Source: Paraglomus brasilianum (taxonomy: Eukaryota). From it: 40,783 nucleotides of DNA. The stretch is from positions 1 through 40,783 of the forward strand of contig CAJVPI010000230.1 of the NCBI GenBank assembly GCA_910592345.1, written 5' to 3'. The translations under genes and the position numbers were made by a program. Positions 1 through 24,051 of the stretch are shown piece by piece; the stretch's first letter is position 1, and every line of letters starts with the position of its first letter. The notes beneath the pieces are model-generated. The model had not been told where the DNA came from. It did no database searches and saw only the letters and a list, made by a program, of their open reading frames with translations.

Positions 1-109
1 TGCAAAAAGCAAAGCTACAAAATGATATAAAAAGTTTGTGTAATTATTATACTGGATTTTGCATAAAATCGAAAAAACTCTCATCGGATACTTTTGTCCA
101 GGGAGTGTA
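1..109. mobile_element. Probable right end (terminal inverted repeat) of a Tc1/mariner-like DNA transposon or MITE; the rest lies outside the window
   Basis: The reverse complement of 85-109 reads TA|CACTCCCTGGACAAAAGTATCCG. This is a TA target dinucleotide followed by a Tc1-like TIR (CA-start, AAAAG.ATCC core). No partner TIR was seen in the window. Confidence 0.5.
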
Positions 110-3100
110 TATACACGTACTAGCACACAATCAATCAAATTCGAGCACTACCTCAAAGCAGGAGGCCTAGTGTTTATATGGTCAAGACAGATCTCATTTA
201 GATTAAGTAGATCGTAGCCTAAGCTATCTAATTTTGATAATCAAGCATTAAATTGATAGGCTTCTTGAGTTCTTTTTGCCAACCATAAACTTGTGAAAGA
301 AGATTCGAAGAGAAAGCTTGAAAGAGAAAAAAATCATTCGATCCCATTAAATTTTAAGAGTGTATTTTTGAAAATTAAAAGGGAGGATCAATTCCCTATA
401 TCGACATTAGCAGAATTACATTTCGCCTTTCAGGCTAATAAGAAATATAAATTTTTGATAGTATAGTAGATTTTTGGCTTTATTGCCCAACTACAGATAT
501 ACTGCTAAAATTGGAACACATGATTTTTGATACAGCAAATTAGCTCAAGGCTGTAAGAGCTGTGAATCTGTTTTCATATTATAGTATTGTAAGAAGAGAA
601 CCCAGTCTTTGGAGGAGCTTAAAAACAGTCTCGGCTGAAATAGAAATCAACAAGATGATCTAAAAAGCTATCATCTGATCGAGTTTAGAATTGATATTTT
701 CGATCTTCGCGTCAAGACTATCGACTTTTCGTTCGAGGTTTTGTAGATTGAGGTACACACATGAGTGCGACGTTTCCTGGCTCTATTTTTTCGCATTCAT
801 AATAAAGTTGATATCCTTTCCGACCCAGTTGACGTCGACCAGTTCTAAACCACTCTATCACGTCTTCTTTCTTTCACCTCATATATGGTGTTAAAACTGG
901 CTTTAGCGTGCAAATATAGCTTGGAAATAAAGTCGTAACTCTATTGTAAACGTTGGTTATTTTATTATTCTACAATTCTAGAAGCAGAACGTTTTCACCT
1001 GATCGATTAGAAGTATTATCGTCACAACATCTCAATTTTTTCTTGCCAAAAGCGATCTGTGTGCAAATTGTCACGTACGCAAGATTGGTTAATATTTCGA
1101 ACGGATGAAGCGGAAGTGTAGGTGCTAATTTTTATTGTAATCAATGTAAACATTGATTTTTTAAACTTGGAATTCCTAGTTTCATCAAGCTTTTGAGATT
1201 CAGTATACAGTCTTAAGTGGAATCCTTGTCTGTGAGTATTTCAGAAGCATTGCGTGTTTCCTGCTTTAGAAATGCTCTTGCTTAGATGGAGCCATTTTGT
1301 AGTAGAATAACTCTCAGAATTGACAAGTGATTAAACTTATAATTACGTAAAATAAATAACACTAAAAACAAGCTTTTGTTTTTATTTTACATGACATGAA
1401 TGGTCCAAAATTGGAAAAGTTACCTATACACAAACTATAGAGAATGCTGTAAGTTGTCTCTTTTTGCACATCACTGTATAGTTTTTTTAGCACGTGATGT
1501 TATGTACCGCGCGTAGATCGATATATATCCACGTTATGGACTAGTCACGCACATCACTACTGGCGTATGGCCAGGCATGTCCAGTGTGCCGTTGACTTTT
1601 CATGCTTCTTTTGTCTAATTTGTGTGTATATAATGCGCTTTAGTTACTCATAAATTATCTGCTAAAATGTTCGAGGTAAAAGTAAATGAATTTCTTGAAA
1701 CTACGACAACAAAAATTGGTCGATTGTTCTATACTGAAATGCATCGAATCGAAGTCTGATATATCTGTTGATATGATAGAACCATTGAAAGAAGAAATAC
1801 ATTCGGGTTTTGATTGAATAGATTAAAAAGTGGGAAAAAAAAAATTCATACAACAGTGTGTCGAAACGTGGTGATAGCAAGTACGTTGCAAGCGTTGAAA
1901 ATGGGTTTCTGACAAACCTAGTAGTGATGAAAAAGAAATCGGTTTAATGAGAATTCTGTTAGAAACATCGTATGAGCAAACAAGAAATAGCAGGCATGTG
2001 CAAAGTGGAAGTTGAAAGACCCAGCCGTTGACGATGAATCTGACCGGGCTACTAAACATTTGAGTTGGAGAGTAATATTACATTGTTATATATTAGACTG
2101 TGAATGATCTAATTATTCTGCTCGTTTTACAGTCCGGGAGTAATGCTAGAACGACATTGGCTAGAAACCCAAATCCAGATTCCATTGTCACAACTGACTT
2201 AACAGTGAATGATTCAATGGCGAATAATCCGGTAGGTTTAATCTGAATTTATCAGGTGCGATTCTTTATAAATTTTATGGTATTGATTATAGACAAAAGG
2301 ATTATTAAGTTTGGTCAAAAAGTTGTGCACCGTTTGTCATCGAAGCCCAGTGAGTCTGTTGATACATTATGTTACTAGAATTCTTGCAAATAATTAACGT
2401 ATTATTATTTTGGATATACTGTGCAGGTCTATTGAATCGAGAATTATTGACTTAACTAATTGGACATATAAAGAATTTGAAAACTAAAGATAAATATATA
2501 CTGGCTCGTATTTTTCAAAAAAGAACTGCTGGCTAGTACTGGTAATAGGTAATGCTTATACTTGTAGAATAATGATATGAATATAACCAATATTGACTAT
2601 TTATAGAAGCCGAATTTAGTACTAATCGTGGACACTGAAGATGTAACGTTGACTTTGTTAGGTTCAAACCATACATTAATTGCTTCAAGATTTCTTGATA
2701 AGCCGGACCATGCACAGCAGTCGTGTCCGCCTTATCGGGTATATCCTAAAAAAATTATTATTGCTGTTACCAAATGAAGTTACATGTTATTTGTTCTAAT
2801 GCTTGAATAGGGAAAATGGTAATTTCAATCACGCGTTGTATAATTCCTGGCAGAATTAGTGTTCGTATCAGCTACACATTATACAAAACAGTATTTAGTT
2901 AAGTCCTGTCATTAAATAAAGCTGTGGGAGTTTTTTAAGTGTAAAATGCTTAATCACTTTCTCTCTATACTCTAGGGCTAAATAATATTTTTCCATGTAT
3001 TAGTATGTCAGCTATTTTTTTTTTCTTCGGAAAAGAAGCATCTGTGAAAACTTTCGTTACTAATCTTATTATTATCTTATTGATAATTATATAAAACAAT

Positions 3101-14670: not shown

Positions 14671-16278
14671 ATGGCACCAGCACCAGCAACAAAAAACATC
14701 CCCATCGTATTAGAAGCGGTAAACCAAGTAACAAACTGTGTCAGCCAACTTCCATACAATGAAGGATTCGATGAACGCGACGTTGTCGAAATCTCAGTGA
14801 CCACCGCTCCCAAGGCCAGAATAGAAATTGCAACAGTCTCTGCAATCATTCAGTTTTCATGCAATCTTGTTCTCTCGAAAGCTGTATACGATGTCCGAAT
14901 AGAATTTCCTCGTATGAAACTACCATTTGCGTGGACCAATAGATCCATCCGCGACGTACTCTACGCTCCTAACGACAACCCAATTGCCCTCGAAGTGGTG
15001 AGCGATGACTGCCGTCTCACGGTCTTTAAGAATAACGATGACGCTTGCAGAGACGAATGGTATGATGCAATCAAGCATTGGCACACTAATTTGCCGCCGA
15101 GATTTCACTTGTTGTTGAACGAACTTGTGGAGAATGTATCCGCCCATGCGCAGCTTCCAGAAGACAGGTTCTGTTTCACTGTTGGATTACATTTTTACAA
15201 AAAGAAGGTAATAATGAATTTCATTAGGGGTCTTGTTACCTGCCATTGCATGTGAATACTCAGCATTGGTATATTCGACCTGCATTAATCCCGTACATTT
15301 CAAACGAATAGCATGTCGATGATCGGCTGATACTAACACTTTTCATTTCCTTTTCTCTTTCCCGCCCACCTCCCTTTCCCCCCTTTTTTCCCCACCATCG
15401 ATTAGCTCTGCTATTGTGTTGCCGATTGCGGTGTCGGTCTACATGGGTCGCTCCAACAAGGAATCGTAGAGGACGCTAAAGCCGCTGCCCGTCGTGCTTG
15501 TGCTCTCTATTTGACACGCCCTCAAGTTACCTCCAAGGGTATCGAGAGAGGACATCAAGGTGTTGGCCTCTTTATCACAAGCGAATTATCTCAAATGAAC
15601 AAAGGCTACGTCCAAATACTCTCCGGTTTACAAGAATACGAGCAAAGAGGTGAGCATAACTATAATCATATACTTTTGATAGTATAAAAAAAGTTCATAT
15701 GACGATCAACCAGCAATGCTACTAAATAGGCTGGATTTTCATGTGTAACTTTGTTCTTTATCACCAATATCACACCCCCCCCCCGACTGTGCCTATATTA
15801 ATCTCTCTTTTTGTATTTTTGTATAATAATAGATACCACTGTTGTACGTGTCAGGGGTATTGCTGAATGGAAAGGCACTATGGTCCATGGTGCGATCAAC
15901 TTGGACCAAGAGTTTAATTATCGGCGAGCCATGAAATTATTTTCCAACCCAAATGACCTCAACAACGACCGATTTCTCGTTGCTTCGGTGCATCTCAACG
16001 TATATGGCCAGAAGAACCTTCGCACTCGTGAATTATGTGAAGAAATCATCCGCGATCTGGAAGCAGCTGTTGAAAGATCAACCAAAATAATCCTCGACTT
16101 TACAGATATCGAAGAAATCTCACAGGCTTTCTCTGGTTTTCTTCGCCGATTTGTTACGAATCACTCTAAAGTACGAATGATGATTATGATTCCACCCAAT
16201 GCTAATGAAGACTTACGAGAGGATCTACAAGACTTGAGCGATCTAGCAGCACAGAACAAATCAGATGACGAGGAATAA
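14671..16278 (+). CDS. Bacterial-type GHKL/HATPase_c (anti-sigma-factor-like kinase) fused to a C-terminal STAS-like (DUF4325-like) domain; 3 exons, 408 aa
   Basis: Exons 14671-15207, 15406-15649, 15833-16278 total 1227 nt in frame. Bergerat-fold boxes: N box LLNELVENVSAHA, G1 VADCGVG, lid TRPQVTSKG, G2 GHQGVGLF, G3 WKGT. The C-terminal GQKNLRTRELCEEII...IILDFTDIEEISQAF matches the STAS-like DUF4325 pattern (xLxxR...LDFxxVxxxxxxF). Confidence 0.82.
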
Positions 16279-16569
16279 TGTTTTTAATTATCTATATTTG
16301 ATTATCATATACTATTCTTATCATTTTTTCTTTTTGTATATTCATATTATTCCTATTAGACTCATTGATTAGAAAATAACAGTTTAATATTCGAATATTT
16401 TATATAGAACGGTTGATTACTTTATAGAGTAGCAATCCAAAAAAATTTTCCTTTCATCTCACTACTTTCGCATTGTAAATGCCATAATCGAATAAAAACC
16501 CTTATATATTAAATAAATATTATTACAACTAAATTGTAATAGAAACCAAGCATAGACAACGTCAAATCA

Positions 16570-17037
16570 TTAAGTTTCAATACTTCGAGTCTGTATACCA
16601 GCAATACCCATTCCACGTATCAATCCCACAATATAGATCTCTGTTGTACTATAAAGTCTCCCCTTCACTTTATACACTTGCACATTATCACTTCCAAACA
16701 ACTCTTCCATAGTTTGTTCCAGTTTCTTATATTTTTCTTGTTGTCCATATGGATCGTGGTCAGATATCGTTAAAGGAGCAAAGAATTGATCCTTGTCTAC
16801 ACGTTCTGTCTTTATTTCTTCCTGAGCATGTGAAGAATCAAGATTCGTTGTTAAATCAGCGAATAGCTCTGCTGACTCGGGTAGGCGTTCGAGTTCCTTG
16901 TTCTCAAAGAACACAAATTCAAGTGGTTCGTCTCCCTCAGAGACGTAATACAAATCAGACGACGCTGCAACAAGTTTATCCTTAACCTGCAGCAAATCGA
17001 TCGGGCGTGCGCTAGAGCTATCGGACGGGTTGCCCAT
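16570..17037 (-). CDS. nuiA: Nuclease A inhibitor-like protein (NuiA family), intronless, 155 aa
   Basis: Aligns by eye along its whole length with Anabaena NuiA: LVAASSDLYYVSEGDEPLEFV vs LKQASDGLLFMSESEYPFEVF; VDKDQFF vs VDIDSFF; KYKKL vs KFQKL; VQVYKV vs PQVYRL; EIYIVG...GIAGIQTRSIET* vs DVYVIG...NLAGISTKVVET*. Confidence 0.88.
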   Translation of the reverse strand: MGNPSDSSSARPIDLLQVKDKLVAASSDLYYVSEGDEPLEFVFFENKELERLPESAELFADLTTNLDSSHAQEEIKTERVDKDQFFAPLTISDHDPYGQQEKYKKLEQTMEELFGSDNVQVYKVKGRLYSTTEIYIVGLIRGMGIAGIQTRSIET

Positions 17038-17260
17038 CGTTCTTGGAAGAAATATGTAGAGATCGCCGTGGCGTAAATGCCAATTTATGGTGTGGAAATG
17101 ACGTTTAAGTCACTTGACCAAACCTATTTCATATCGATATTCTTATACATAGTAATAGGTATTTCTCAATAGTAACCAGAACCTGATTCGATTGGCCAAA
17201 TGGAAGTTCGTTTGATCGCTTAGTTAATTGAACGATTGATGCAAAAGCAATCGCTGGGCT

Positions 17261-20795: not shown

Positions 20796-23057
20796 ATGAG
20801 TTTAGTCCTCAGGAAATACCCATTAATTGAAAGAGAGTTGACACCAGATAAACCTCGATAAGCCCGAAGAACGGCTTCCTATTGTCACAAGCGGTAAAGC
20901 AGTTCACGAATTACTAATTATGTTGGTCATCAAAATGACAGGCATTTTGGATTCCTTTCTACGAGGAAACAATTAAATATTTAATCTAAACAATTGTTTA
21001 TAAAGAAATTATTGCTTAATGTAATGATGTTTCATGTGACTCAAATACAGTATAACGGATTTCGATCAAATGACGGAATTGTTAACCAATTTTTATTCAG
21101 TGGTGAAAATTATTTTACGATTCTTAGGTTTATAGAGAAAACCAAAGACGTAGAGCGTGCATAGCCGTAATGCATTACGCTGACAATGGTTGCTAACTTT
21201 ATACTTGTCCAACAAACAAAAGCTTTTGTCGATATTATGCCATCGAATTCTTTGACTTGAACGATGTCATCTGTTTTAGGGGCTCGTACAATAATAGACG
21301 GCACCTCTTTAGCGGCTGAATATTATGAACTTAATGCGGAAATCACTGACATAAGTCAAGCCGAATTGACTGCGCTATTTGCAAACAAATGTTTCATGGC
21401 GGTAGCATTGAAGAAACGATGATAGTGATGCTGTTACTTGGAAGCGAGGAAATATGTACACCAACTCATATGAGAGAAGTTGCTAGAATATACTCTCTTT
21501 CAACACGCAAGCACAACAATGATGCCAGTCAGTTTAGAAGATTTTCCACATGGCTTAGACATCGCTACAAGGATTCACCAAGCATGAAGATAACTATTAT
21601 CTGGTTGCTCGTAAGCGCTTTTATCATTATTATTTTCTATATGGATTCTGCTCTGCATGTGGAATACTCCGATGTGGACATAAAAAATTATCCAATGGAT
21701 AGACTAGCAACAATAAACGACTCGACGAGTTTATTAAGAAATCTCAAATACAAACGAACTCAGCAAACGATTAGAGTGATTGTATTGATAATAAGGGATA
21801 TCGTGTATACTTAAATAATAGTCTATCTATTACTACTTATCTTGGAGTAAAATGGATTCCACTTGACATAACAGATGAGACGGACGAGTCATATTACTAT
21901 TCGTCATGAATATATCGTGTTTATCGATTGTTTAGATAATTTTTGATTTTGTGTATAATTTTTATAGTTATGTGATGAGCATCAAGATATTCTTACCACA
22001 GATGTTTGGGTGACCATTGGATTTACATATGATGCAAGTGAATAGAAGTATTATATAAAAGAACGAGATAAGATTGGAGTATGTCTGGCATGTACGCGTC
22101 GATTAGAACCTAAGATAAATATATTCTGTTATCGTTGTAAAGCACCAAGGTCTCCCGATTGGACTACGGGCAATAAATCTTTGGATTCGTTTATTATGGA
22201 ATCGTGGCGTAATGCGAAGAATAAACATAATGCCTATATACAATGGATAGAGTACCCTCTATTGACAAACGTACGAGATATGACACCATTACACACATAT
22301 GGCAGAATTTTTAGAACCGATAACAAATGAATGGACAAGAGTAATGCTCAGACAGATAGAGCTCGGTTATTTGATTTTTATCAGGTAAATTATTTCAACT
22401 CAAATATAAATAGAATTACTTGCGTCCGCGCACGTTGATTGATTTTTTATAACGACTGTATTAATAGTTAACCAAGGAATATCCGGAGATATTAACACCA
22501 GAAAATATTTGGATCATTGGTATCACTCAAAGCCATCTACTCGAAAATATTGTTTGGTATTCTACTACGAAGCGCGGATTAATGGAGATGTTAAGTATAT
22601 GCAGCATGCGGATTTTGCTGAAATCAATGAGATTGGATCTGGTGGTTATGGAACAGTCTATACTGCCAGATATAAAGGCAAATCAAAACTTATTGTCCTC
22701 AAACGCTTTAAAAATTTTGATGAGACACCGGAATTGTTTATTTCCGAAGTAAGCAATCTTTGGTATTAAATTTAATCTAACTCTGTATTTATTTTTTTTT
22801 TATTTAATAGTTCAGACATCACACCAAGTGCGCGCGTTATGGTTTTTCTTGAAATTTATGGAATCATGCAAGATCCAGAAACAAGGGGGTACATGATTGT
22901 TATGCAATATGCTAATAACGGCAACATTTTGTCTTACTTGGATCAAAATATCAACAAATTGATGTGGAAGATGAAACTAGAGTGTTTGAAAGATATTGCA
23001 CAGCATCTGTATTTTATTCACTATGCGGGATTTGTGCATTGCGATCTTCATGGTGGA
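20796..23057 (+). pseudogene. Degraded, 3'-truncated tyrosine-kinase-like protein kinase of the family expanded in Glomeromycotina
   Basis: Two family-typical N-terminal motifs, CGHKKLSNG*TSNNKRLDEFIKKSQ (TAG 21700-21702 where Trp is expected) and WTTGNKSLDSFIMESW...YIQWIEY. Kinase core EIGSGGYGTVY, IVLKRFK, IYGIMQDPET...MQYANNG and FVHCDLHGG. Several in-frame stops (e.g. 22043-22045) and no DFG/APE region. The 5' boundary is approximate. Confidence 0.8.
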
Positions 23058-24051
23058 GTGTCTGTGAAGACTAATGTTATGGCATATATTCCTCCCCTAA
23101 TTTCTGCGTAACACCGATGGTAGCACAGGAGAATTCGATTATCGTGTCGCAATCCTCGAACTTCAGCACTTTCGAATAAGTAGATTTTCCATATGTTATT
23201 CCCCGTTTTCTGCAACAGAAGGTTTACCTCCCTAAGTGATTTACATCTTGTAGCAACTACTGATGACAATTTTCGAACGCACAATATTATTATCCTAGTT
23301 GCGTAAAGAAATCTTGTTTTTCTCATTTTACAATATCTTTGAAACTAACAGAAGGATTTGATGATATCATTCTTTTCTTTAGTGAGAGAGAATAATAGTA
23401 ATAAATATCGACAGTTAGTGCTTTTGAGGCATTAAAAAGATTGGAATGTTTTTAATTTAACAAAATAAAAAAAAAGCCGAAAGTTATTTAAAAGCTGTTA
23501 AACTTTATACGTAACTTGGCCAAAATTATATAAGAATTATTATTATTTTCAATAGCTGTTATTATTATAATACATACAGTAATAGTAAGAGATGTAAATT
23601 GTTAAAATTTCTTTCCTATGGAAAATTTTAGTTGTTTGGTTAAACTTTTAAATATATCCTGGGGAAAAGCCCAACTTTGAATTGACGAAGAGAGAATTAA
23701 TAACAGTTATTATATTTATTATTCATGATAATAATGATAGCTTTGGGACTAGGTACAATCCTTTGTTTAGTATTTATATATTCAAGAGCAGCGCACAAAA
23801 AAAATTGTATCAAGTAGCGAATGCAAAGCCTTTGTTATGCAATTGTTCCGAAATCGGCCAGTTCGAAATAAGCAATTTATTTCGATAGATTGTTTATGAC
23901 GTAGACGATTGTCGTTAAACTCGCAAAATTGTAAACAATTGAATGTAGGTCACGCAAAAGGATGAGAATTTTTTGATGTATGACAAGCCTCCGCCAACAA
24001 GTAGTTTATATTAATATATTAATATGTATACATTATTCTGTAAACGATGCC

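Follow-up and report, generated by a model that had tools for sequence, protein, structure and literature searches.

An intronless open reading frame in a 40,783-nt stretch of Paraglomus brasilianum DNA (contig CAJVPI010000230.1; hereafter the window) encodes a member of the NuiA family of nuclease inhibitors. We propose, with a probability of about 0.5, that it is a vertically inherited NuiA-fold protein, likely cytosolic or nuclear, that inhibits some nuclease of beta-beta-alpha-metal type from the fungus itself, most likely the mitochondrial enzyme Nuc1/EndoG. NuiA and NuiA-like families are already catalogued in Pfam and the locus is not itself a new system; what it adds is a compact, single-form glomeromycete member lacking an AUG-initiated long form, together with a clue to specificity, an Asp-Pro in place of Asp-Trp. 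The features on which the analysis rests are the following.

16570..17037, minus strand: NuiA-family open reading frame, 155 aa, intronless and with no obvious signal or presequence
16936..16941, minus strand: codons of S33-E34, with E34 the equivalent of NuiA Glu24 (alignment to 2o3b_B)
16747..16755, minus strand: codons of D95-P96-Y97, opposite NuiA Asp75-Trp76-Tyr77, with Pro in place of Trp (alignment to 2o3b_B)
16570..16578, minus strand: E154-T155-stop, the free C-terminal Thr being the equivalent of Mg-binding NuiA Thr135 (alignment to 2o3b_B)
17038..17156, minus strand: unspliced 5′ leader, 119 nt or longer (contig of run X2)
14671..16278, plus strand: convergent neighbour gene, 408 aa, exons 14671-15207, 15406-15649 and 15833-16278

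The YVSEGDEP stretch and the C terminus ending in TRSIET, by which an earlier note on this DNA had recognized a NuiA homologue, are both present in the minus-strand 155-aa frame, and the family assignment is borne out by profile and structure searches. The protein scores 54.7 bits against the Pfam NuiA profile PF07924 (cut-off 22.1; profile positions 3-130 of 130) and 42.8 bits against NuiA_2, PF23151 (cut-off 27; positions 40-154 of 154), and NCBIfam gave no match above cut-off. A sequence search of the PDB at E ≤10 returned only two distinct matches, both Anabaena NuiA, and the phmmer alignment with 2o3b_B (E 0.0017) sets S33-E34 opposite the S-E of MSESE and ends on T155 as the last residue in both; counted along the PDB sequence of 136 residues, positions are one higher than in the entry's numbering of 1..135, and the aligned NuiA residues are therefore Glu24 and Thr135. 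An AlphaFold2 model (pLDDT 72.5, pTM 0.64, from a 34-row alignment) again has 2o3b_B as its best Foldseek match (E 3.3e-8, TM 0.66/0.75), and VIA-align superposes 131 residues of the two with Z 16.3 and rmsd 2.9. The next unrelated folds, Maf1 and phage Dip among them, follow at Z 6.1 and about 6, and because these proteins fall in the same fold class, the modelled fold alone would not fix the function. The Atlas's own model matches a bacterial NuiA cluster with TM 0.69 and a eukaryotic NuiA_2 cluster with TM 0.66, the latter being 100% eukaryotic, mostly Ascomycota, and composed of members named hypothetical in their sources. The fourth row of the Atlas structure search is a Bacteroidota cluster in which NuiA is fused to a HIT/DcpS_C domain.

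With NuiA of Anabaena/Nostoc sp. PCC 7120 (PF07924; 2O3B chain B, 1J57) the P. brasilianum protein thus shares the fold, an acidic character (29 D/E against 16 K/R, pI 4.5), the SE motif with Glu24, Asp75 and a terminal Glu-Thr at a free C terminus, but the two are only ~25% identical and differ at Trp76, which is Pro in P. brasilianum. We take Glu24 of NuiA to be a nuclease-contacting residue and Asp75-Trp76 to be a second contact site that bears specificity. The tree alignment, with 17 fungal and 42 other rows, places these positions in a family context. At the Glu24 column, 16 of 17 fungal rows carry E and the remaining one D, and all 42 others carry E; the last residue is T in 12 and S in 5 of the fungal rows and T or S in 42/42 of the others. 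All 17 fungal rows end at one common column, and most are only 24-39% identical to the P. brasilianum protein. The second site behaves differently: Asp75 is Asp in 13/17 fungal rows, whereas the Trp76 column holds P in 11, W in one and another residue or a gap in five, as against W in 37 of the 42 other rows and a D/E-W motif in 83/85 bacterial loci. The available portions of two papers describe the C-terminal Thr of NuiA as coordinating the catalytic Mg directly (PMC5587815, PMC2790893), and that of a third describes NuiA as competitive with DNA (PMC5758888).

The earlier note had held both inhibitory determinants, Glu24 and the C-terminal Thr135, to be conserved, and they are, as E34 and T155. 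It had missed the second site. Judged from the alignments, the catalytic-site plug appears to be kept and the second contact altered, and the exchange of Asp-Trp for Asp-Pro suggests a different target, away from cyanobacterial NucA; the loss of Trp76 could also mean weaker or absent binding instead of retargeting. Because the second contact has changed from Trp to Pro, the idea that bacterial NucA is the target is weakened. Many fungal members (P0003, P0015, P0017, P0022, P0030, P0048-P0053) also share an N-terminal motif, approximately D-Y-x-A/S-F/M-L, which the copies in Paraglomus, Geosiphon, Ambispora and Dimargaris lack. Relative to the uncharacterised fungal proteins of PF23151, to which it is joined by an above-threshold score and a structural match (TM 0.66), the P. 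brasilianum protein differs in scoring higher on the bacterial NuiA profile, in lacking the N-terminal motif that many of them carry and in offering no in-frame ATG further upstream from which a longer form could start.

The frame is intact and unspliced and is present in public RNA-type assemblies. Eight of 23 listed runs were examined and four yielded contigs on it, X1 (16018-17015), X10 (16876-17010), X2 (16804-17156) and X4 (16705-16997); the other four gave none, an absence that proves nothing. X1, X2 and X4 belong to one study whose RNA type is a guess, and X10 to a second study with RNA on record. The X1 and X2 contigs jointly span the frame without a gap, in agreement with its description as intronless, and in X1 and X10 the introns of the neighbouring gene have been removed. 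As the contigs are unstranded, they support transcription of the NuiA strand without proving it. The leader, unspliced as far as 17156, contains no ATG in frame with the NuiA start, from which an upstream in-frame stop is 24 codons away; an AUG start that would give a presequence is therefore absent from it. The 24 open codons before the ATG are nothing out of the ordinary, for stretches of that length in flanking DNA are stop-free in 24% of cases. The leader also holds an 8-codon out-of-frame upstream reading frame (17124..17150, minus strand; ATGs at 17150 and 17132), which could dampen translation. Since no targeting sequence is evident in the protein, we infer a cytosolic or nuclear location.

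A homologue search of 1.84 billion representatives returned 20 matches, from which we dropped P0010 (1774 aa, repeat-rich, spurious) and P0002, a 121-aa near-self fragment that was omitted from the tree. Nine of the remaining 18 are fungal by the source name of the protein or of a cluster member (Scutellospora, Geosiphon, Ambispora, Umbelopsis, Jimgerdemannia, Rhizomucor, Dimargaris, Basidiobolus and Sporothrix), one unnamed match groups with Mucorales, and eight were treated as bacterial, with a named taxon in just one cluster. Among the seven best non-self matches (P0003-P0009), six are fungal by name and one by tree position. The closest named protein, from Paraglomus occultum, is 90% identical, and a profile search adds Phascolomyces, Fennellomyces and a second Basidiobolus, so that the fungal spread takes in Glomeromycota, Mucoromycota, Zoopagomycota and Ascomycota. 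The tree was built on 138 columns and 59 rows, made up of 17 with a fungal label (two of them unnamed), nine other search matches and 33 of 85 bacterial loci retained by dereplication at 65%, a sampling skewed to Cytophagales. In it, the P. brasilianum protein pairs with that of P. occultum (100/100) within a clade of five Glomeromycota rows (96/87). The fungal rows all lie on one side of the tree with weak support (59/69), and the nearest supported set (97/90) unites them with two rows without a fungal label. These two, P0043 (Longimicrobiaceae) and the unnamed P0020, lack the Asp-Trp motif and adjoin the fungal rows; they are possibly relatives of a donor lineage, or an artefact.

The earlier note read the lack of introns as consistent with bacterial origin and proposed a phylogeny against bacterial NuiA; that phylogeny yielded fungal nearest relatives, a supported Glomeromycota clade and rejection of the sampled bacterial groupings. 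Placing the Paraglomus pair with the five-row cyanobacteria-rich clade is rejected at p-AU 0.002, and placing it with the 26-row Bacteroidota clade at p-AU 0.0002. A further AU test on the cyanobacterial rows (p 0.005) is confounded, because those rows do not group as a single clade in the free tree. Recent horizontal gene transfer from bacteria, or bacterial contamination, could draw on the intronless gene, on an Atlas feature search that puts mostly bacterial clusters first and on the tolerance of a position with all non-fungal rows, that is, basal to other fungi (p-AU 0.39). Against it, besides the 90% identical P. occultum protein, the Glomeromycota clade and the rejected sisterhoods, stand the spliced fungal genes that flank the locus (the window carries the housekeeping genes for a peptidase M3, Cse1, a Na/Ca exchanger, RNase H2 subunit C and a P-type ATPase) and a host-like GC3 of 0.365, within the 0.34-0.47 of five neighbouring coding stretches. 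Because GC3 is host-like and the neighbouring genes contain uninterrupted coding stretches longer than its 468 nt, the missing introns carry little weight, and the neighbour, which looks more bacterial, has two introns of its own. We regard recent transfer or contamination as very improbable and, on the sequence comparisons, largely refuted already. The P. brasilianum protein most likely belongs to an old fungal branch of the bacterial NuiA family and is not a fresh import; for the fungal branch as a whole, bacterial ancestry in the distant past is plausible. Our literature search found no paper joining horizontal transfer, Paraglomus, Geosiphon and cyanobacteria.

Of the two genes, it is the convergent neighbour that more plausibly represents a domesticated bacterial gene, judging by its resemblances. 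It resembles bacterial ATPase-STAS proteins and is not of nucA type: its last exon scores weakly against DUF4325 STAS-like (19 bits, below cut-off) and matches ~350-aa reading frames in 8/301 Bacteroidota genomes, and its first exon is nearest to Atlas clusters of bacterial hypotheticals (0.94), with no match in plasmids or in the 301 Bacteroidota genomes. It has an ExxxNxxxH stretch similar to the GHKL ATPase N-box. Both introns are GT-AG and confirmed by contigs of four studies, and poly(A) lies near 16531. The 3′ end of this gene (about 16500-16533) falls 40-70 nt from the NuiA stop and the X1 contig joins both genes, which suggests that the convergent transcripts overlap at their 3′ ends. 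Elsewhere in the window, at 22443..23111 on the plus strand, are fragments of a tyrosine-kinase-like protein kinase, a class expanded in Glomeromycota.

A six-frame scan of the window turned up no [DA]RGH nuclease motif, although an intron could hide one; the description of the gene as an orphan thus holds only in the sense that no nuclease gene is adjacent, and the view of it as an isolated gene is not supported. The cyanobacterial plasmid NucA/NuiA pairs are arranged differently, a convergent non-specific endonuclease gene abutting nuiA in 5/5 loci opened (of 10 matches), whereas the P. brasilianum gene sits without one in a eukaryotic host. Such linkage is itself the exception in the GTDB loci: among the best 80 of 168 (16 of these 80 being under 5 kb), a NucA-like frame occurs within up to 2.5 kb in four and in none of the other 76. 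Genomes of Cytophagales with unlinked nuiA encode PF01223 elsewhere in 5/5 tested, as do 4/14 control genomes. Because so few loci are linked and PF01223 is encoded elsewhere in the unlinked genomes, unlinked nuiA is common and ordinary in bacteria and compatible with action in trans.

The earlier note had offered the host's EndoG/Nuc1 as one possible target, and this remains a plausible choice: fungal Nuc1 sequences carry the DRGH motif and belong to PF01223, the family used to find NucA-type enzymes. By analogy, Nuc1/EndoG would be the likeliest conserved fungal target within that nuclease family. As in NuiA, the catalytic Mg2+ would be bound by the terminal Thr (T155), and E34 would stand in for the scissile phosphate, so that the DNA/RNA site of the nuclease would be blocked competitively; the Pro at the Trp76 position of the second contact loop would reflect a shift of target away from cyanobacterial NucA. 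Having no presequence, the inhibitor would encounter Nuc1 only after mis-sorting of the enzyme or its release from mitochondria, and its role would resemble that of Drosophila EndoGI (3ISM), the extramitochondrial protein inhibitor of escaped EndoG. The likeness to EndoGI lies in this proposed role, whereas the folds differ, a helical repeat in EndoGI and an alpha/beta NuiA-type model for the P. brasilianum protein. As far as the accessible text of PMC2790893 goes, EndoGI blocks EndoG outside mitochondria in Drosophila, contacts the metal through water and not directly, and is distinctly different in fold from NuiA. Counting against a Nuc1 inhibitor are the unrelated fold of EndoG's known inhibitor and the homodimeric state of EndoG as against the monomeric NucA. 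The homodimer is described in the available part of PMC5137453. For a glomeromycete Nuc1, a profile search had none among the named rows of the best 120 of 2938 matches, and a motif scan of metagenome contigs gave at least 116 stretches, none of them a named glomeromycete one and all, by reading, ascomycete, basidiomycete, algal or chance matches.

Three other readings share parts of this evidence. The target may instead be another endogenous fungal beta-beta-alpha-metal nuclease, for example a non-specific one that is secreted or autolysis-related, with the protein as a safeguard in case of mis-sorting, the part that NuiA plays for secreted NucA; the conserved plug residues fit such a target too, and a partly accessible 2026 review (PMC13522737) reports endogenous inhibitor proteins both for Neurospora endo-exonuclease and for nuclease O of A. 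oryzae, the latter inhibitor acting in late growth. We consider this reading unlikely. Those inhibitors, which also speak for a Nuc1 inhibitor, are like the proposed one in being endogenous fungal proteins that inhibit non-specific nucleases; their identity with the NuiA family is speculation. That the fungal branch has been repurposed, its terminal Thr plugging another metal-dependent enzyme or the protein serving as a non-inhibitory interaction module, seems to us slightly less likely still: the loss of Trp76, the bacterial NuiA-HIT fusions, the different partners of the fold relatives Maf1 and Dip, and the extra N-terminal motif that many fungal members have and the P. brasilianum copy lacks would all sit well with it, but the SE motif and the terminal E-T/S are conserved jointly, as the known nuclease-binding mode would require.

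Cytoplasmic endobacteria occur in arbuscular mycorrhizal and mucoralean fungi and could be a source of NucA-like nucleases; that the protein defends the fungus from bacterial enzymes of this kind was the other option of the earlier note. The plug residues do match those of bacterial NuiA, but the bacterial Asp-Trp site is Asp-Pro here, and the family's occurrence in Basidiobolus, Dimargaris and Sporothrix as well would point to a general role in the host, which makes this defence improbable in our estimation. An inhibitor of the fungus's own nuclease, most likely Nuc1/EndoG, is the reading we prefer. Within the literature that we searched, with most subscription journals outside it, we found no paper giving fungal NuiA-like proteins a function.

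A wider scenario, which we put forward tentatively and regard as doubtful in its entirety, is that a bacterial NuiA was taken up before the split of Zoopagomycota, Mucoromycota, Glomeromycota and Dikarya and was retargeted, with Trp76 becoming Pro in early-diverging lineages, as an endogenous Nuc1/EndoG inhibitor. It would then be the gene that encodes the inhibitor proteins isolated from filamentous fungi decades ago, and would restrain a nuclease of cell death and antiviral action in the cytoplasm that coenocytic mycorrhizal hyphae share. In cell death, Nuc1/EndoG breaks down DNA, and in yeast it attenuates RNA viruses after release from mitochondria; the accessible portion of PMC6697816 reports release of Nuc1 to the cytosol in living yeast cells and attenuation of dsRNA viruses. 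If the family is indeed the fungal inhibitor of Nuc1, it would open a direct way to study how Nuc1 in the cytosol is survived by fungi.
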